In this document: positions 4,619 through 35,304 of the stretch, piece after piece
How positions within the stretch are numbered: the first letter of the stretch is position 1
Layout of the letters: each line of letters starts with the position of its first letter
Assembly (NCBI GenBank): GCA_016432345.1
Contig: CP066685.1
Span: forward strand, 240,236-304,235
Direction of reading: 5' to 3'
Origin: Candidatus Levyibacteriota bacterium
GTDB taxonomy: Bacteria > Patescibacteriota > Microgenomatia > Levybacterales > UBA12049
Length of the DNA stretch: 64,000 nucleotides
Notes under the pieces: model-generated
The model's input: only the letters and a program-made list of their open reading frames with translations
Told to the model about the DNA's origin: nothing
Databases searched by the model: none
Position numbers and translations under genes: made by a program

Positions 4619-4636
4619 ACTTGCTATAATAGAGTT

Positions 4637-18048: not shown

Positions 18049-18108
18049 TATTATTACTAGAGGTTCTTGACAAAAAAAGTAATATACTATACCATTCAGT
18101 TGTTTTCT

Positions 18109-18146
18109 AATTCCCTCACGATTCTTGCGAGGGAATTTTCTTTGAA
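18109..18146 (+). terminator. Intrinsic-terminator-like hairpin in the greA leader
   Basis: AATTCCCTC (18109-17) / GAGGGAATT (18129-37) followed by TTTTCTTT. It lies between a TTGACA box (18067-72) and the greA ATG (18151). Confidence 0.5.
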
Positions 18147-18150
18147 GAGT

Positions 18151-18624
18151 ATGGCGCAGAATAAAAAAATTTATTTAACAAAAGAAGGTTTGGCAGAACT
18201 TAGAAAAGAACTTGAGAATCTTACAAAGACTAGGAGGCCAGATGTATTAGAAAGAGTTTCGCAGGCAAGAAGTCTTGGTGATCTTTCCGAAAATGCCGAA
18301 TATGCTGCGGCTCGAGAAGAACTTTCTTTTATTGATGGAAGAATAGACGAGCTAGAGGAGCTTATTCGACAGGCAAGCGTTATTCATGAAGCCGGCAAAA
18401 GGGGTTCGGTATTGGTGAAGCTTGGTTCAAAAGTTACACTGCACGTAAATGGTAAAAAAGAAAATTTTATGGTTGTTGGTGAATGGGAAGCGGACCCCTT
18501 AGCCAAGAAGATTTCGCACGAATCCCCTCTTGGCAAGGCGTTAATTGGAAAAAAGGTTGGAGAAAAAGTTGAAGTAACTGCACCGGCAGGTAAAATACTG
18601 TATACTATTGTTAGTGTTGATTAA
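18151..18624 (+). CDS. greA: Transcription elongation factor GreA
   Basis: MAQNKKIYLTKEGLAELRKELENL..., acidic-tip motif GDLSENAEYAAA, and a C-terminal FKBP-like domain. Confidence 0.92.
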   Translation: MAQNKKIYLTKEGLAELRKELENLTKTRRPDVLERVSQARSLGDLSENAEYAAAREELSFIDGRIDELEELIRQASVIHEAGKRGSVLVKLGSKVTLHVNGKKENFMVVGEWEADPLAKKISHESPLGKALIGKKVGEKVEVTAPAGKILYTIVSVD

Positions 18625-28103: not shown

Positions 28104-28708
28104 ATTTATTAATTGCCACAACAAATAAAGGAAAACTTGCGGAATTAAAAACTTTTTTACAAGATGTTCCCGTTGAATTAGTGTCTTTATCAGATGTCGG
28201 GATAACAGATGATGTAGAAGAAACAGGAAAAACCTACAAAGAAAATTCTCAAAAAAAAGCTCTATTTTATGCCAGAAAAAGCAATCTTCCGGTAATTGCC
28301 GATGATGGAGGTTTGGAAATAGATGCGTTAGGGGGTGCGCCTGGAGTTAAATCTAGGCGATGGTTGGGAAAGGCTGAATCTGATGAAGTACTACTTAATC
28401 ATTTAGCAAGTGTGGCAAAAAATCTCCCCTATGAAAATAGGAAGGCGTGGTTTAAAACAGTTATTTCTTTTGCTTTACCCAATGGAAAAGTATGGAGTGT
28501 GAGTGGAGAAGTTGAAGGGATTATTGCAGAAAAACCGCACGTAAAAATTCTTAAAGGTTATCCGTATCGGTCGTTTTTTTATTTGCCGAAGATAAAAAAG
28601 TATTATCACGAAGATCAGTTATCAGATAAGGAACAAAAGTTGTATAATCATAGATATAAGGCGATAGAAAAATTAAAGCCCATAATTAAAAAGTATGTTA
28701 GACATTAA
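28100..28708 (+). CDS. rdgB: Non-canonical purine NTP pyrophosphatase (RdgB/HAM1)
   Basis: LIATTNKGKLAEL N-terminus and ADDGGLEIDALGGAPGVKS motif. Confidence 0.88.
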   Translation: MNLLIATTNKGKLAELKTFLQDVPVELVSLSDVGITDDVEETGKTYKENSQKKALFYARKSNLPVIADDGGLEIDALGGAPGVKSRRWLGKAESDEVLLNHLASVAKNLPYENRKAWFKTVISFALPNGKVWSVSGEVEGIIAEKPHVKILKGYPYRSFFYLPKIKKYYHEDQLSDKEQKLYNHRYKAIEKLKPIIKKYVRH

Positions 28709-29942
28709 ATTTATTCGGGAAAATCCAAGTCTTGTACAAAAATCTGCAAAAGATAAAAAAGTTGATATTAGCATTGATCATGTTTTAAAGATTGATAGAA
28801 AGTATCGAGAGCTTTTTTTATCTGTTCAAAAACTTCGGGAAGAACGAAATAAAATCGCAAAAGAACAGAATAGGGAAAGAGGGAAAGAAATAAAAGACAG
28901 GTTGGAAAAAGAAGAACATGCATTAAACTCTGTTCAAGAAAAATTGCAAGAGTGGCTTTTAAAAATTCCCAATCTTCCAAAAAGTGATGTAAAAGTTGGT
29001 AAAGATGAATCTGAAAATAAAGTCATTAAAACATATGAAGAACCTACAAAATTTAATTTTACCCCAAAAGATCATTTAGAACTTGGAGAAGCACTCGATA
29101 TTATCGATGTAGAAAGAGCTGCAAAAGTTTCTGGGGCGCGTTTTGCATATCTCAAAGGTGATGCAGTACTCTTAGAATTTGCTTTGGTTCAATTAGCGAT
29201 GGAAACTTTACTAAAAGAGGGATTTATCCCAGTTATTCCACCAGTATTAATTCATCAAGAGATTACAGAAGGTCTTGGTTATTGGCAAGCAGGCGGAAAC
29301 GAAGATTACTATTTGGTTGGAGAACCAACAGAAGGAAAAAATTTCTATCTTGCCGGAACAGCAGAGCACGCAATAGTGCCAATGCATAAAGATGAAGTAT
29401 TTCAAAAAAAAGATTTACCAAAACGGTATGTTGGGTTTTCGTCGGCATTTCGGCGAGAAGCAGGAAGTTATGGTAAAGATACAAAGGGAATTTTGCGGGT
29501 GCATCAATTCGACAAAGTAGAAATGGTTTCGTTTGTTCCAAAAGAAGAAGACGATAAAGAACATGATTATTTATTGTCTTTGGAAGAAAAATTATTTCAA
29601 ATGTTAGAGATTCCATACCAAGTAATAAAAATGTGCACTGGTGATTTAGGATTTCCAGCTGCCAGAAAATATGACATCGAAGCATGGATGCCGGGACAAA
29701 ATAAATATCGAGAAGTTACATCGGTTTCTACAGTTACTGATTTTCAGTCTCGAAGATTAAGTATTAAATACCAAGATGGTAATGAAAAAAAGTTCGCGCA
29801 TATTCTTAATGGAACTGCATTTGCAATTGGTCGGACAATTATTGCAATTTTGGAGAATTATCAGCAAGAGGACGGGTCTATAAAAATTCCAACTGTTTTA
29901 CAAAAATATATTGATAAAGATCGTATTACATCTTCAAAATAA
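28695..29942 (+). CDS. serS: Serine--tRNA ligase
   Basis: N-terminal coiled-coil arm. Class II motifs FRREAGSYGKDTKGILRVHQFDKVE and GTAFAIGRTIIAILENYQ. Confidence 0.93.
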   Translation: MLDIKFIRENPSLVQKSAKDKKVDISIDHVLKIDRKYRELFLSVQKLREERNKIAKEQNRERGKEIKDRLEKEEHALNSVQEKLQEWLLKIPNLPKSDVKVGKDESENKVIKTYEEPTKFNFTPKDHLELGEALDIIDVERAAKVSGARFAYLKGDAVLLEFALVQLAMETLLKEGFIPVIPPVLIHQEITEGLGYWQAGGNEDYYLVGEPTEGKNFYLAGTAEHAIVPMHKDEVFQKKDLPKRYVGFSSAFRREAGSYGKDTKGILRVHQFDKVEMVSFVPKEEDDKEHDYLLSLEEKLFQMLEIPYQVIKMCTGDLGFPAARKYDIEAWMPGQNKYREVTSVSTVTDFQSRRLSIKYQDGNEKKFAHILNGTAFAIGRTIIAILENYQQEDGSIKIPTVLQKYIDKDRITSSK

Positions 29943-30105
29943 TTCTCCAAAAAATATAAAAAATAACTATTGTGATTTTTGTTGTTATTGCAATCTAAAT
30001 TATTTGTTTTGAAGCAAAGGAAAATTCTTGACAAAATAAAAAAAATATTCCACGATTTATATATCATCAATCTTAAATTTTTATCATGAAAATTTAAGAA
30101 AAAAA

Positions 30106-30116
30106 AGAGGAGGTGA
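30106..30116 (+). promoter_or_regulatory. Strong Shine-Dalgarno sequence (AGAGGAGGTGA) for the mini-ORF
   Basis: Near-perfect anti-SD complement, 8-10 nt upstream of ATG 30125. Confidence 0.6.
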
Positions 30117-30124
30117 ATTACTCC

Positions 30125-30157
30125 ATGGCAAAAAAGAAAAAGAAAAAGAAAAAGTAA
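30125..30157 (+). CDS. Mini-ORF encoding MAKKKKKKKK (candidate leader or regulatory peptide)
   Basis: ATG GCA (AAA AAG)x4 TAA. Strong SD upstream, with a hairpin and a terminator downstream. It lies in the 330-nt gap before secA. Confidence 0.45.
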   Translation: MAKKKKKKKK

Positions 30158-30195
30158 ATTGGTAAGATAGTCCGCCAATTGGCGGATTACCAATT
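30157..30195 (+). promoter_or_regulatory. Nested hairpin overlapping the mini-ORF stop
   Basis: AATTGGTAA (30157-65) / TTACCAATT (30187-95) enclose the perfect palindrome TCCGCCAATTGGCGGA (30171-86). An alternative partner TTGGTAA lies at 30202-08. Confidence 0.55.
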
Positions 30196-30207
30196 GATCA
30201 GTTGGTA

Positions 30208-30249
30208 AAAACCCCGTTCCACATTATGTAGGGCGGGGTTTTTCTTTTT
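30208..30249 (+). terminator. Rho-independent terminator 24 nt upstream of secA
   Basis: AAAACCCCG (30208-16) / CGGGGTTTT (30234-42) followed by TCTTTTT. Confidence 0.7.
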
Positions 30250-30255
30250 AATGTA

Positions 30256-30264
30256 TGGTAAAAT
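30256..30264 (+). promoter_or_regulatory. Extended -10-like element TGGTAAAAT immediately upstream of secA
   Basis: A TGnTAAAAT match at 30256-64. The ATG at 30273 lies 9 nt downstream, and no SD is present. Confidence 0.3.
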
Positions 30265-30272
30265 AGTAATAT

Positions 30273-32894
30273 ATGCTTTCGTTTTTAGGAAAACTGTTTG
30301 ATTCCAATCAAAAAGAATTACAAAAGATTGCGCCTATTCTTTCTGAAATAAATTCTTTTGAAAAAAAAATTGAAAAATTAAAAGATAAAGATTTTGTAAA
30401 AAAAACAAATGAGTTTCGAGAAAGAATAAAAAGCGGGGAAGATTTAACAGTTATTCTGCCAGAGGCATTTGCGCTAGTTCGTGAAGCAGCCAAACGGACA
30501 ATAAGACAAAGACATTTTGATGTGCAGCTTATTGCCTCTACTATTTTAGCGAGCGGCAAAATTGCCGAGCAAAAAACAGGAGAAGGTAAAACTCTTTCTG
30601 CGGTACCGGCGCTTTATTTACATAGTTTAACTGGGAAAAGTGTTCATTTAGTAACGGTCAATGATTATTTGGCAAGACGAGATGCCGGATGGATGGGGCC
30701 AGTTTTTGATTTTTTGGGAATTACCGTTTCTTCTATTATTAACGAGCAGTCATTTATTTTTGATTCTTCGTATACCGATAAAGAAGTACATGATTTTAGA
30801 CTTTTGCATTTAAAACCAATTTCTAGAAAAGAGGCTTATAAGGCCGATATTGTTTATGGTATTAATTCGGAATTTGGTTTTGATTATTTACGTGATAACA
30901 TGGCAACGCAATTAGCGGATACAGTACAAAGAGGTTATTATTTTGCAGTTGTGGACGAGGTAGATTCGGTTCTTATTGATGAGGCAAGAACGCCGCATAT
31001 TATTTCGGCTCCTCAAGAGATTCCATCCCAAAAATATTATGAATATGCAAAATTAGTTGAAAAATTAAGTGAAGATACTGATTATAAAATAGATGAAAAA
31101 TTAAGAACAGCTCATTTAACAGATCATGGAATCGCAAAAATTGAAAAATTATTTGGTATTGCCAATATTTACGAAAATGATTTTGATACAGTTTATCATT
31201 TAGAAGCAGCCTTAAAAGCCAGAACGCTTTTCCAAAAAGAAAAAGATTACATTGTAAAAGATAATCAAGTTATTTTAGTTGATGAGTTTACAGGAAGATT
31301 AATGCAGGGTCGAAGATTATCCGAAGGACTTCATCAAGCAATTGAGGCAAAAGAAAATGTGCCAATCCAGAGAGAATCAAAAACTTTGGCAACTGTTTCT
31401 TTGCAGAATTATTTCCGCATGTACGAAAAATTAGCTGGCATGACCGGAACTGCTGTAACAGAAGCGGAGGAATTTAATAAAATTTATAAACTTGATGTTG
31501 TAGCTATTCCAACCAATAATCCCATGATAAGGCAAGACAGTTCGGATGCAATTTACAAGACCAATAGAGCAAAAATATCTGCGGTTATTGACGAGATAGA
31601 AAAGATTTATAAAGTAGGACAGCCTATTCTTGTTGGGACAACAGCTATTGATAAAAATGAAATTATATCTCAAGCCCTTCGCCGCCGCGGAATAAGACAT
31701 GAAGTTTTAAATGCCAAAAATCACGAGAAAGAAGCAGAAATTATATCTAAAGCAGGAGAAAAAGGAGCTGTTACTGTGGCCACAAACATGGCAGGACGTG
31801 GTGTTGATATTATTTTAGGAGGAGATCCGGGAGAGCAAGATAAAAAAACTTGGCAGAAAAAACATGACACGGTAGTTTCTTTAGGCGGACTCTATATTAT
31901 TGGAACAGAAAGGCATGAGTCAAGACGAGTTGACAATCAATTGCGAGGCAGGTCTGGAAGGCAGGGTGATCCTGGCGCATCCAGATTTTTTGTGGCGCTG
32001 GATGATGAAATTATGCGGCTTTTTGGAGGAGATATGATAGCAAACCTAATGACCCGATTTAATATGCCAGAAAATATACCGCTTGAACACCCAATTGTAA
32101 CGCGAGCAATAAGCCAAGCCCAAATTAAAGTTGAAGGATTTAATTTTGATATTCGCAAACATTTGGTTGAGTACGACGATGTGTTAAATAAACAAAGAGA
32201 AATTATTTATGTCATGCGAAGGGAGATGCTTGGAAAAGATGAAAAAAATGAAATTTCTTTAAAAGAAGAAGTTGTTAAAAAAATACAAGCAGCAATTACA
32301 ACAGCAGTAAGTCTTAGAACTACAGAAGCGCAGGAAAGAGGACAGTTGCCAATAACTGCTATTGTTTCGGATTTTGCAATGATTATTCCATTTGATGAGG
32401 CGTCGCAAGAGCAATTAAAAAAACAATTAGAGCAAATACAAGACGAACAAGAGAAAATATCTTTTCTTTCTAATTTGGCAGTTGATATTTACAATAACCG
32501 CGAAAAGCAGGTTGGAAAAGACGTTATGGAACAAATTGAACGATTTGTGGTGTTGTCTGTTATTGATAATTTGTGGACAGACCATTTAGATGCTGTAGAA
32601 AATTTACGCCAGGGTATTGGACTTAGGGGATACGGACAACGTGATCCGCTGGTTGAATATAAAAACGAAGCATTTCGTATGTTTGAGCAGCTAATCAATG
32701 CAATAGATGATGAGATTGTACATAGAATTTATAAAATTCAGGTTGCTGCACAACCAGCCTTACAACAAGAAGAAATATCAAACAATAAAAAAGCATCAAA
32801 AGTACCGAAGGGAGAGAAGTTGGGGCGTAATGATCCCTGTCCTTGCGGTTCTGGCAAAAAATGGAAGAAATGTCATTACCCAAATGTTTCATAA
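30273..32894 (+). CDS. secA: Preprotein translocase ATPase SecA
   Basis: Full-length SecA with MLSFLGKLFDSNQKEL, DEAD-like VVDEVDSVLIDEARTP, and the C-terminal zinc motif CPCGSGKKWKKCH. Confidence 0.95.
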   Translation: MLSFLGKLFDSNQKELQKIAPILSEINSFEKKIEKLKDKDFVKKTNEFRERIKSGEDLTVILPEAFALVREAAKRTIRQRHFDVQLIASTILASGKIAEQKTGEGKTLSAVPALYLHSLTGKSVHLVTVNDYLARRDAGWMGPVFDFLGITVSSIINEQSFIFDSSYTDKEVHDFRLLHLKPISRKEAYKADIVYGINSEFGFDYLRDNMATQLADTVQRGYYFAVVDEVDSVLIDEARTPHIISAPQEIPSQKYYEYAKLVEKLSEDTDYKIDEKLRTAHLTDHGIAKIEKLFGIANIYENDFDTVYHLEAALKARTLFQKEKDYIVKDNQVILVDEFTGRLMQGRRLSEGLHQAIEAKENVPIQRESKTLATVSLQNYFRMYEKLAGMTGTAVTEAEEFNKIYKLDVVAIPTNNPMIRQDSSDAIYKTNRAKISAVIDEIEKIYKVGQPILVGTTAIDKNEIISQALRRRGIRHEVLNAKNHEKEAEIISKAGEKGAVTVATNMAGRGVDIILGGDPGEQDKKTWQKKHDTVVSLGGLYIIGTERHESRRVDNQLRGRSGRQGDPGASRFFVALDDEIMRLFGGDMIANLMTRFNMPENIPLEHPIVTRAISQAQIKVEGFNFDIRKHLVEYDDVLNKQREIIYVMRREMLGKDEKNEISLKEEVVKKIQAAITTAVSLRTTEAQERGQLPITAIVSDFAMIIPFDEASQEQLKKQLEQIQDEQEKISFLSNLAVDIYNNREKQVGKDVMEQIERFVVLSVIDNLWTDHLDAVENLRQGIGLRGYGQRDPLVEYKNEAFRMFEQLINAIDDEIVHRIYKIQVAAQPALQQEEISNNKKASKVPKGEKLGRNDPCPCGSGKKWKKCHYPNVS

Positions 32895-35304
32895 ATTGCA
32901 TAAGTATAAAGGAATATTAGTTTTTTTCTGCATCATTTCTTTTTTGAATGGTGTTATTTTTTGGCAAGTATTTTTACAAAACAAAATTCCTTTATCTGCG
33001 AATCTCTTGGTATCTCTTTTTAGTCCATGGAAACAAGAAAAATTTTCGGGTTGGGAGGTTGGTATTCCAAATAAGCCATCTGGTAAAGATGATTTGTGGA
33101 TTTTCTATCCCCAAAGAACATTTTCTACAACTGTTTTAAAAAATAAAGAAATTCCTTTGTGGAATCCATATAGTTTTTCTGGTAATTATCACTTGGGACT
33201 TTCGGAAACTGCTATTTTTTATCCATTTAATCTTTTATTTTTATTTTTTCCACAAATTGATGTTTGGGTATTATTGATTATTATTGAGCCTATTATTACA
33301 GGAGTAGGTATGTATTTATTTTTGAAAACAATAGTTTCCCAAGAAAAATCAGCGATATTTGGAGCATTAGCTTTTGCTTTTTCGGGCGTTATTATTACCC
33401 GCGCGATAGATGGATTAAGTGTTGGACATACACTTATTTGGATGCCGTATGTTTTTTGGGGCGTGGAATCGTTTTTACAGACAAAAAAAATAAGATTTTT
33501 ATGGGTAATTCTTATCTCTTTATGTTTTTCTCTTTTGGCAGGATGGTTTCAGTTTACATTTTATATTTTGTTTTTTTCATTATTATACGCATTGTTTGAA
33601 ATATCTTTTGAAAAAAAGAAAGATACGAAAAGAAATCTTTTTATTGTTATTCCTTTTTTATTATTTCCATTGCTTACTCTTTTTCATACGATACCTGCTT
33701 TAGAAGCCCTTGCGGACTCTCCGCGTTTGGCATTGGAAGGAAGATTATTTTCTTATCAACATTTAATGCCGTTTATCCATATAGCAACAATTATTTTTCC
33801 CGACTTTTGGGGCAATCCTGCGGTCTACAATTTTTATGGCCCAAGTGATTACAAGGAATCAATTTTGTTTGTCGGAGTAATACCATTATTTTTCTCTCTT
33901 TTATTAATTAGTAGACATAAGACAAAAAAAGAATTATTTTTTATTTTGGCGATTATTATCGCTTTCCTTTTAGGAATAGATAATCTTTTTTCTAAAGCAT
34001 TGCTGTTGTTGCATCTGCCAATATATAGTTCGTTTATTCCTAGCAGAATATTTGTTGTTGCAATTTTTTCTTTTTGCGTTTTGGCTTCTTTTGGTTTTGA
34101 TTTTGTTTTGATTGAGGATAAAGAAAAAGTATGGAGAAAGATAAAAAAAGTTTTCCTTTATTTGTGGTTGGCGGTTGTATTATTTGTTATATTTGTAGGT
34201 TATAAAATTGTGATAGATCCTGGTATTTTGTCTCGTGTTGATAATTTTGGGTTAAATACGAATGTTTCGGCAATACAAATTCGCAGTACAATTGTTTCTG
34301 TTGGTATTTTTATATTATTGACAATAATATGCGTATTTTTTAAAAATAAATACAAAAGAAACATTTTTTTTGGTTGTGTTATTGCTGTTTTCTTTTTACA
34401 AAGTTATATATTTGCTCAAAAGTATATACCATTTTCGCAGCGGCAGTTTTTGTATCCAGAACACCCTGTATTTAAATATTTAAAAGAACATCAGGGATTA
34501 GATCGTTTTATGAGTATTGGTTTGGGTCATATTGCTCCAAGTCTGCCTTTACAGTTTGGCTTATATTCCCCAGAAGGGATTGGGTCAATGTATATTCGTC
34601 GTTATGGAGAATTTGTTAGATATATGCAATATGGAGATTTTGGAATTCCAAATAAAATTGCTTTTGATATGGAAATAAGCCCCAAGGATGTTTTTACTCC
34701 TCTAAATAAAAGATTCTATAATTTTGTTTCACTAACAAGTATAAAATATATTGTGGTTGATAAAAAATCTATGGAAGAATTAAAGATAATTCCTGATAAG
34801 GATAATTTTGTGCTGGTTTGGGAGAATGAGAAATGGCAAATATATGAATATAAAAAAACTATGCCGAGATTTTTTGTTACCAGCGACTATAAAATTATTA
34901 CTAATAAAGAAAAAATTCTTCAGACTTTGTTTAGCAACGAGTTTAACCCAGCAAAAGTTATTCTTGAAGAAAATCCCGGTTTTGCGCCAAAAGAATATCT
35001 GGGAAATGTAAAAGTTTTTAACTATTCTCCAAATAAAATAACAATGCAGGTCGAATCAGATAATAACGCGCTTATTTATTTTTCCGATACTTATACGAAA
35101 GCATTCAAGGCGTTTATTGATGGAAAAGAAGGTAGAATTCTTCGCGCCAACTATACGTTTCGGGCCATTCCGGTTGAAAAAGGAAAACATATTGTTGTTG
35201 TTAGATATGATACAACCGGTGTTTCTGCGGGGTTTATTATTGCTGGCTTTGTGCTTACGAGTTTTGGTATTATGACATTGATAGTTAGCAGAAAGAAAAT
35301 ATAA
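32884..35304 (+). CDS. YfhO-family large polytopic membrane protein (putative glycosyl-transfer related)
   Basis: About 800 aa with many TM helices and a C-terminal beta-rich domain ending in a TM segment. The probable start MFHKLHKYKG overlaps the secA stop. Confidence 0.5.
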   Translation: MFHKLHKYKGILVFFCIISFLNGVIFWQVFLQNKIPLSANLLVSLFSPWKQEKFSGWEVGIPNKPSGKDDLWIFYPQRTFSTTVLKNKEIPLWNPYSFSGNYHLGLSETAIFYPFNLLFLFFPQIDVWVLLIIIEPIITGVGMYLFLKTIVSQEKSAIFGALAFAFSGVIITRAIDGLSVGHTLIWMPYVFWGVESFLQTKKIRFLWVILISLCFSLLAGWFQFTFYILFFSLLYALFEISFEKKKDTKRNLFIVIPFLLFPLLTLFHTIPALEALADSPRLALEGRLFSYQHLMPFIHIATIIFPDFWGNPAVYNFYGPSDYKESILFVGVIPLFFSLLLISRHKTKKELFFILAIIIAFLLGIDNLFSKALLLLHLPIYSSFIPSRIFVVAIFSFCVLASFGFDFVLIEDKEKVWRKIKKVFLYLWLAVVLFVIFVGYKIVIDPGILSRVDNFGLNTNVSAIQIRSTIVSVGIFILLTIICVFFKNKYKRNIFFGCVIAVFFLQSYIFAQKYIPFSQRQFLYPEHPVFKYLKEHQGLDRFMSIGLGHIAPSLPLQFGLYSPEGIGSMYIRRYGEFVRYMQYGDFGIPNKIAFDMEISPKDVFTPLNKRFYNFVSLTSIKYIVVDKKSMEELKIIPDKDNFVLVWENEKWQIYEYKKTMPRFFVTSDYKIITNKEKILQTLFSNEFNPAKVILEENPGFAPKEYLGNVKVFNYSPNKITMQVESDNNALIYFSDTYTKAFKAFIDGKEGRILRANYTFRAIPVEKGKHIVVVRYDTTGVSAGFIIAGFVLTSFGIMTLIVSRKKI

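Follow-up and report, generated by a model that had tools for sequence, protein, structure and literature searches.

A probable stand-alone oligolysine micro-gene with a candidate ribosome-gated 3'-untranslated region between serS and secA of Candidatus Levyibacteriota

The stretch of DNA analyzed here, referred to as the window, is 64 kb of the genome of a member of Candidatus Levyibacteriota, a part of the Candidate Phyla Radiation (CPR)/Patescibacteria. Between serS and secA in this window lies a short element, referred to as the mini-gene. It consists of a promoter motif, a Shine-Dalgarno (SD) sequence, a mini-open reading frame (mini-ORF) for the peptide MAKKKKKKKK, three short segments (a, b, and c) that can pair in two alternative ways, and an intrinsic terminator (Table 1). 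In a homologue search, the product of the downstream gene, for which an exact look-up had found no record, was 100% identical to a protein named SecA of Candidatus Levyibacteriota; the matches listed in that search all had at least 70% identity and did not reach other CPR phyla. A preliminary description of this locus had read the element as a leader of secA, and the mini-ORF, hairpins, palindrome, and terminator that it placed here were all confirmed in the sequence.

Table 1. Coordinates of the mini-gene and its flanking genes in the window
Feature	Position	Strand	Sequence or remark
serS	28695-29942		Upstream flanking gene of the mini-gene
Conserved region upstream of the promoter	29971-30027	+	TGTGATTTTTG 29971-81, CAATCTAAA 29991-99, TTTGAAGCAAAG 30008-19, A-rich stretch
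Mini-gene promoter	30028-30056	+	-35 TTGACA 30028-33, 17-nt spacer, -10 CACGAT 30051-56
Predicted transcription start	~30063	+	Placed from the promoter motif
5'-untranslated region (5'-UTR) stem-loop	30071-30099	+	TCTTAAATTTTTA / TGAAAATTTAAGA; from the fold of the predicted transcript
Shine-Dalgarno sequence	30106-30116	+	AGAGGAGGTGA; core GGAGGTGA 30109-16, 8 nt before the ATG
Mini-ORF	30125-30157	+	ATG GCA (AAA AAG)x4 TAA = MAKKKKKKKK; TAA 30155-30157
Element a	30157-30165	+	AAUUGGUAA; 5' strand of a:b; begins on the final base of the stop codon
Capping hairpin H1	30171-30186	+	Palindrome TCCGCCAATTGGCGGA; enclosed by a:b; seen in folds; variable
Element b	30187-30195	+	TTACCAATT (RNA UUACCAAUU); shared strand, pairs with a or c
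Loop of b:c	30196-30199	+	GATC (GAUC), inside the UGAUCA palindrome
Element c	30200-30208	+	AGTTGGTAA (RNA AGUUGGUAA); alternative partner of b; abuts the terminator
Intrinsic terminator	30208-30249	+	AAAACCCCG...CGGGGTTTT (also written AAAACCCCG...CGGGGUUUU), then T-run UUUUUCUUUUU; from folds
secA extended -10	30256-30264	+	TGGTAAAAT; 8 nt before the secA ATG; neighbour, not part of the unit
secA	30273-32894	+	ATG at 30273; no SD; all SecA domains found with Pfam

Two sets of loci were compared with the window. The first contained 80 species-representative Levyibacteriota loci anchored on secA, and the second came from a metagenome scan with the hairpin motif alone (TACCAAYTGATCRNTTGGTA). 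The two sets were pooled and de-duplicated, which gave 135 distinct mini-gene units. An SD-driven mini-ORF rich in lysine and arginine (K/R) was found before secA in 53 of the 80 secA-anchored loci. Five further loci were missed by the filter, four with GTG or TTG starts and one with a degenerate SD. Of the 80 loci, at least 15 have no unit at this position, and in these serS directly abuts the secA promoter. The metagenome scan returned 120 loci, about 100 of which are the mini-gene unit between serS and secA, while the remainder look like chance matches. Conservation of a K-rich mini-ORF and hairpins upstream of secA in relatives was one check proposed in the preliminary description, and the 135 units provide it. 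There is one mini-gene copy per related locus and one in the window. A repeat or mobile element was rejected as an explanation, since the palindrome, the Lys tract, and the SD are all unique in the window and each locus has one copy.

Two loci with other contents in this slot were also observed. In L074 (2730-3001), the slot downstream of serS retains the conserved promoter and a terminator and has lost its SD, K-rich ORF, and b:c hairpin. This slot may be a decayed or re-purposed mini-gene copy. In L071 (~2560-2800), a different small basic ORF, MPKPKIGRVSVKTKPSKPPQIQPKKGKGK, fills the slot just before the secA promoter; its SD GGAGGTGA and a terminator are present and the a/b/c elements are absent.

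The motifs that would make the mini-gene its own transcription unit are conserved. TTGAC[AT] was found in 127/127 units with enough upstream sequence. It is followed in 124 units by a -10 of the form nAnnnT with a spacing of 16-18 nt, and in 117 the spacing is 17 nt. The commonest -10 hexamers were CACGAT, CAACAT, and CACTAT. At the other end, a hairpin with a T-run is present in 130/132 units, with a mean of -14 kcal/mol and a start within ~3 nt of the end of c. The intrinsic terminator proposed earlier is real. In the window, 24 nt separate the end of the T-run from the secA ATG. A consensus promoter scan missed the mini-gene promoter due to its weak -10, and a consensus terminator scan missed the window terminator because its loop is longer than the 8-nt limit of the tool. 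Transcription from this sigma-70-type promoter (TTGACA-17-CACGAT) would run from ~30063 to the terminator at ~30249. The resulting RNA of ~190 nt would carry hairpins at both ends; the prediction is one stem-loop on the 5' side, three hairpins on the 3' side, and an ORF free of structure between them. Folds of 176-nt and 106-nt stretches gave z = -5.7 and -6.3, with 0/200 shuffles as good, and the fold of the whole predicted transcript gave z = -6.0. The 5'-UTRs of relatives differ from one another both in sequence and in length, the median being ~51 nt. At the level of motifs, the mini-gene has an independent promoter and terminator that would yield a short, discrete RNA with these predicted ends.

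About 57 bp located 5' of the mini-gene -35 are also conserved at the nucleotide level, while the SecA proteins of the same genomes are only ~70% identical. Alignment of ~40 relatives gave the upstream consensus TgATTTTTg-N9-CAatCtAAAc-N7-tTTTGAAGCaaagaAaaat-CTTGACAAa, and the extended consensus in relatives is TgATTTTTg-N9-CAATCTAAAc-N7-TTTTGAAGCAAAG-(A-rich)-CTTGACAAA-N17-CAnGAT. Each of the upstream boxes is unique or not enriched elsewhere in the window. This region could be an UP element, a set of phased A/T tracts, or a factor-binding site.

The mini-ORF carries several signatures of translation. The core GGAGGTGA of its SD is found only once in the 64-kb window when both strands are searched; the preliminary description had called this SD the best match noticed there. 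In relatives, the SD is conserved as (A)GGAGGTGA with 6-10 nt between the end of GGTG and the start codon, and the start position holds ATG, GTG, or TTG only. When the start codon was picked by SD spacing alone, the Lys frame was used in 107/108 units, and the sole exception looks like a 1-nt indel. Since non-coding sequence would give about one third of the units per frame, this is a signature of translation. The K/R content of the mini-ORF is 0.8, compared to 0.38 for the next-highest among the SD-preceded ORFs of 5-60 amino acids in the window, where its Lys tract is also unique.

Peptide lengths across the 135 units span 9-34 amino acids and are most commonly 9. The second residue is Ala in 115 units, and in 19 it is Pro. 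The ~1,560 residues include 1084 K, 227 A, 97 R, 66 T, 46 V, and 21 P, and the acidic residues among them are one Asp and one Glu. Even in long variants, 4-5 K/R codons always stand directly 5' of the stop codon. The stop codon is TAA in 102 units, TAG in 33, and TGA in none, while TGA closes 13/47 long ORFs of the window. Pairing of a with b or a requirement for release factor RF1 could explain the absence of TGA stops. Taken together, selection for translation of the mini-ORF is supported, and the mini-ORF is presumably translated.

The preliminary description pointed to the AAA/AAG runs as a feature that could slow ribosomes or make them slip. AAG accounts for 65% of the Lys codons in the mini-ORFs compared to 17% in the long ORFs of the window, and the longest A-run is usually 5-6 (at most 5 in 78/135 units). 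This bias, together with the short A-runs, points to faithful translation rather than to designed poly(A) slippage. The family steers clear of long A-runs, which make ribosomes and polymerases slip, and this is the reverse of what selection for a slipping or stalling device would produce. The suggestion of slowing or slipping is therefore disfavoured across the family. Programmed frameshifting of the dnaX type was also considered. The dnaX-type -1 frameshift signal consists of an upstream SD, the heptamer A_AAA_AAG, and a downstream hairpin. The window copy shares the in-frame A_AAA_AAG (GCA AAA AAG), the upstream SD, and the downstream hairpin. It differs in that the hairpin lies at the stop codon, rather than 5-8 nt past the slip site, and in that the alternative frames of the mini-ORF end at different places across relatives. 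Frameshifting like that of dnaX was rejected, since the heptamer is not conserved, the codons are biased toward AAG, and the helix begins at the stop codon.

Downstream of the Lys codons, element b can pair with either a or c, and this alternative pairing of the 3' arm, which had been described from the window, is real and conserved across units. The longest contiguous complementarity to b in the 16 nt from the stop codon averages 8.65 nt, compared to 4.0 nt in control windows, and a pairs with b at 8 or more of 11 positions in 117/135 units. The a:b register starts at base 1, 2, or 3 of the stop codon in 71, 34, and 7 units, respectively; in the window, the two overlap by one base, which agrees with the earlier observation that the stop codon overlaps the 5' arm of a hairpin. 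In a 99-sequence alignment, 89.6% of the a:b cells are paired and covariation is 0.095 vs 0.069, with 0/500 shuffles reaching either. Position 4 of b (the Y of CCAAYUG) covaries with a, giving 87 A-U, 17 G.U, and 11 G-C pairs and 2 mismatches. When this position is C, the innermost b:c pair is kept in 0/17. In constrained folds from stop-3 to the end of c, the a:b state was more stable in 125/135 units, by a mean of 3.7 kcal/mol.

The palindrome TCCGCCAATTGGCGGA of H1 is unique in the window, and relatives have other hairpins or loops in its place, for example UCCGUC..GACGGA or GCUAUUUGGAGC. H1 keeps its hairpin form despite this variation in sequence and length, as in CCGCC/GGCGG vs CCGUC/GACGG. 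Through insertions of hairpins, the a-to-b spacing varies between 9 nt and over 40 nt. Nearly all unit-carrying secA-anchored loci contain TGATC. In distant clades (L120, L024, and L070), the competing pairing has been rebuilt with different sequences. The frequent G.U pairs indicate that pairing takes place at the RNA level, on the plus strand. Three-way complementarity between a, b, and c can itself explain the strong sequence conservation, yet not the conserved GAUC loop.

In six loci (L006, L008, L022, L038, L049, and L053), b is duplicated (TTACCAATTATTACCAATTGATCA). With two copies, a:b1 and b2:c could form together, so the hairpins need not compete in these loci. The heptamer TTGGTAA/TTACCAA occurs 27 times in the window compared to 15.9 +/- 3.9 expected; 3 of these 27 copies are in the element and the others are scattered with no obvious pattern. 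Three further candidates in this region were rejected. An internal promoter at element a (TGGTAAGNT) was dismissed since its -7 T is not conserved among relatives. A second tiny ORF (UUG AUC AGU UGG UAA) and a conserved backup stop in shifted frames were dismissed since neither is conserved across the a-offset classes and the GATCGA clade.

These data bear on whether the mini-ORF is coding at all. The element could be a non-coding small RNA (sRNA), or a palindromic DNA operator (TTACCAA-N-TGATCA-N-TTGGTAA) bound by a regulator that acts on secA or on the mini-gene promoter, with the ORF being incidental. It is true that b, the loop, and c form a near-perfect 22-bp palindrome, which is highly conserved without covariation, and that the A/G-rich tracts have no stop codon in any frame. 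However, an incidental ORF does not agree with the use of the Lys frame in 107/108 units or with a conserved consensus SD at fixed spacing from a position restricted to start codons. For an operator, the frequent G.U pairs in both helices would turn into A/C mismatches at the DNA level or on the opposite strand, the variable a-to-b spacing suits an RNA and not a protein-DNA site, and the distance to the secA promoter is variable. We therefore consider an untranslated element very improbable.

The relation of the mini-gene to secA was evaluated next to the signals of secA itself. An extended -10 (TGnTAnAAT) precedes secA in 125/129 units and is present also in relatives without the mini-gene. 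The distance from its end to the secA ATG is most commonly 6 nt (47 units) or 9 nt (27 units). An extended -10 located 6-9 nt before the ATG, together with the lack of an SD, implies that the secA mRNA is leaderless or nearly leaderless. In several loci, other material of 0.4-2 kb lies between the mini-gene terminator and secA. The inserts in L141, L157/L165, and L197 are identifiable, unrelated genes (a membrane protein, a toxin-antitoxin-like pair, and others), and the insert in L150 is ~0.4 kb of extra sequence before secA.

According to the preliminary description, the peptide could be a Lys-codon leader or an arrest peptide that controls readthrough of the terminator or translation of secA. 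The unit adjoins secA in ~95% of cases, with 45-75 nt between c and the secA ATG, and a short ORF, alternative hairpins, and a terminator are all present. Known monitors of the Sec pathway, SecM and others, do sit upstream of secA (PMC10987492). But the terminator is self-contained and shares at most ~1-3 nt with c, and a:b and b:c do not compete with it; in the window the overlap is 1 nt, as the earlier caveat of a ~1-nt overlap had stated. Readthrough RNA would present secA only as an internal AUG with no SD, and secA has a promoter of its own that exists where the mini-gene is absent. Control of secA is also at odds with the intervening genes or sequence in the loci named above. Since the adjacency of serS and secA persists without the unit, the linkage of the mini-gene to secA is ordinary gene-order conservation, with no mechanistic link. 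We give control of secA only a slim chance: a role for the mini-gene as a secA leader is not supported, and it does not appear to control this gene.

The comparison with the arrest peptides that monitor Sec and YidC (SecM, MifM, VemP, ApdA/ApdP, and the RQH family; PMC10987492) leads in the same direction. The likeness is a small ORF immediately upstream of secA. In contrast to those systems, the mini-gene peptide lacks any hydrophobic, signal, or transmembrane segment and any known arrest motif. The mini-ORF is separated from secA by a terminator and another promoter, and there is no secA SD for a stall to unmask. An arrest peptide similar to SecM or MifM, as had been suggested, is thus not supported. 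A survey of Sec-monitoring arrest peptides in 30,000 genomes mentions neither Patescibacteria or CPR nor lysine (PMC10987492).

Two observations concern secA and other genes of the window. An extended -10 (TGnTAAAAT/TGnTATAAT) located 6-14 nt before an ATG with no SD was found at secA (30256-30275) and at several other genes of the window, at 4622(+), 8911(-), 38012(+), and 54080(+). Leaderless mRNAs are probably common in this genome, judging from these motifs, with secA and several other genes being leaderless. A YfhO-like ORF listed at 32707-35304 shares 188 nt (32707-32894) with the 3' end of secA, and the real start of this ORF is probably further downstream.

Closest in logic to the mini-gene are the leader-peptide attenuators of the his, trp, thr, phe, and leu operons. 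They also have a very short, strongly SD-driven ORF dominated by the codons of one amino acid. In both, three segments can pair as 1:2 or 2:3, segment 1 is placed where a ribosome at the end of the ORF would mask it, and an intrinsic terminator lies downstream. The mini-gene differs in that c forms neither strand of the terminator, which leaves the switch unable to antiterminate, and in that the downstream secA has its own promoter and is not a gene of the Lys pathway. The mini-gene therefore fails the coupling between switch and terminator that defines attenuators. We know of no Lys-codon leader peptide that has been described; Lys operons use the L-box riboswitch.

A second comparison can be made with small basic peptides that bind the ribosome or nucleic acids, such as bTHX, bS22, bL37, and eL41, and with the K/A/P/T-rich tails of the histone H1 type. 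The long variants of the mini-gene peptide (22-34 amino acids, e.g., MPVKKTAAKKKTAVKKTVKKTVAKKKKK) are similar to these in size and composition, and the strong SD and dedicated promoter are like those seen in highly expressed genes. Ribosomal proteins of CPR bacteria carry Ala/Lys-rich extensions, as does uS19 in Parcubacteria (PMC9297842). In contrast to the small ribosomal peptides, most mini-gene peptides have 9-12 residues and are almost pure Lys, the unit is absent from some related genomes, and an association with the ribosome or nucleoid is putative.

The mini-gene can also be compared with dual-function sRNAs that encode a small peptide, such as SR1/SR1P, RNAIII/hld, and SgrS/SgrT. Like these, and here at the level of motifs, it would be a short RNA, independently transcribed and terminated, with a small ORF and conserved structured segments. 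It differs in that no base-pairing target for the mini-gene RNA was found in the window and none was found conserved in ~1 Mb of flanks. We know of nothing in RNAs of the SR1, RNAIII, or SgrS type that corresponds to a stop codon placed inside a switch helix.

Database searches did not place the element in a described family. No Rfam family reached its gathering threshold anywhere in the window. A permissive Rfam scan of 29900-30320 gave only weak, terminator-driven hits, the best with 29 bits vs a gathering score of 50, and the best of the leader families was Thr_leader with 18 bits vs 55. No tRNA or tmRNA accounting for the mini-gene region was found. Seven variants of 22-34 amino acids had no Pfam or NCBIfam hit at E up to 10, which is a weak negative for queries so short and low in complexity, and an exact look-up of ten variants of 23-36 amino acids found none in a collection of 15 billion proteins. 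Full-text literature searches found no description of the element. The mini-gene has never been annotated and matches no described family. As a separate observation, greA in the window (18066-18155; ATG 18153, MAQNKKIYLTKEGLAELRKELENL...) is preceded by CTTGACA-N16-TATACC, and its short leader contains a hairpin resembling an intrinsic terminator, TTCCCTCACGATTCTTGCGAGGGAATTTTCTTT. The greA gene of E. coli has a terminated leader, GraL, which the greA leader of the window resembles.

The explanation we favour, and consider reasonably probable, is that the element is a stand-alone peptide-coding micro-gene with a ribosome-gated 3'-UTR, and not a leader of secA. At the level of sequence, its support comes from the conserved unit with its coding frame, its SD, its motifs for a promoter and a terminator, and its two pairings, as well as from the independence of the unit from secA. 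An independent gene for a tiny cationic peptide, which the preliminary description had mentioned as a caveat, is the reading that the evidence favours. In such a micro-gene, the unstructured, A/G-rich middle of the RNA would be translated from the strongest SD of the window into MAKKKKKKKK, and in relatives into a mostly-Lys peptide of 9-34 amino acids. Elements a and b would be transcribed before c and a:b is usually the more stable pairing, so an untranslated RNA would keep the stop codon within a:b. This state would leave UGAUCAGUUGGUAA single-stranded beside the terminator. A ribosome on the last Lys codons or on the stop codon would unwind a and free b, which would then pair with c and present the conserved UGAUC loop. 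Because the ribosome would be what opens a:b, the 3'-UTR would report ribosome occupancy of the mini-ORF. Since the terminator lies outside the toggle, termination should be constitutive, and the output of the toggle should lie within the mini-transcript, in its stability, its retranslation, or the exposure of c and the loop.

Several points weigh against this explanation. The ends of the transcript, its translation, and the peptide are all predictions from sequence, as are the role that the peptide plays and the direction in which the toggle works, and stability, retranslation, and exposure of c and the loop are candidate outputs. The b:c pairing is paired in 93.9% of the alignment cells, and its covariation does not go beyond shuffles. 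Its case is thus one of conservation, with four of its pairs fixed by the selection pattern. In the window itself, the two states are equal in constrained folds (-19.5 kcal/mol for a:b vs -19.3 kcal/mol for b:c), and the minimum-energy fold of the full transcript uses b:c. The absence of the unit from at least 15 of the 80 related genomes means that it is not essential there. Lys exceeds Arg 11:1, which is more than a need for charge alone predicts, and we know of no documented function for an oligolysine of 9-10 residues in bacteria.

In an alternative explanation, what counts is that the Lys run is translated, and the peptide itself is a side product. In this case, the speed or occupancy of the ribosome, set by the supply of Lys-tRNA or by general translational capacity, would decide between b:a and b:c. 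UGAUCAGUUGGUAA would be exposed or masked and would have an RNA or a protein as its partner in trans, so that the element would be an sRNA of the dual-function or sensor kind. The layout matches that of a leader peptide, with the 4-5 K/R codons directly before a stop codon inside a:b even in long variants, and the a/b/c complementarity is conserved and was re-created with other sequences in the distant clades. Lys is strongly preferred over Arg, b, the loop, and c are conserved much more strongly than the length of the ORF, and the ground state leaves c unpaired by the terminator, as in many sRNAs. However, a search for b-like targets of c and the loop found none in the window and none conserved in the flanks of related loci, which extended over several kb each and ~1 Mb in all; the top matches in the flanks were element a itself, read on the opposite strand. 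Three-way pairing would by itself account for the conserved sequence, the preference for AAG and the short A-runs suggest decoding that is smooth and not prone to stalling, and Ala or Pro at position 2, along with the K, A, T, V, and P of the long variants, look like constraints on the product. A trans-acting riboregulator of this kind has a small but appreciable likelihood in our judgment.

Returning to the micro-gene, our best guess is that its peptide is a functional polycation with nucleic acid or the ribosome as binding partner. Abundant and faithful production of such a peptide would fit with the strong SD, the dedicated promoter, the terminal hairpins, and the AAG bias. The 11:1 ratio of Lys to Arg and the constant K-run at the stop codon fit a sensor role equally well. 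A more specific picture, which we regard as speculative and on balance unlikely, is that AK8, the peptide with its Met removed, is made in large amounts from the hairpin-protected mini-mRNA. It would serve the ribosome or the nucleoid as a polycation similar to a polyamine or protamine, while the a:b/b:c switch would gauge ribosome occupancy and tune the output of its own mRNA.

If true, few known conserved gene products would be as short and as homopolymeric as AK8, and the nucleoid in question would be the tightly packed one of ultra-small cells. If the favoured reading of a stand-alone micro-gene holds, gene callers and family databases would have missed a gene conserved across a whole CPR lineage, and the lower size limit of conserved bacterial genes would move to a near-homopolymer of 9-10 codons. 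The RNA logic of leader peptides, in which the end of an ORF governs 1:2 and 2:3 pairing, would be found outside transcription attenuation, with the stop codon placed in the switch helix. A tempting mis-annotation of the element as a SecM-like regulator of secA is corrected. The micro-gene would also provide a handle on charge neutralisation or on the sensing of translation status in the genome-reduced, uncultured bacteria of the CPR.

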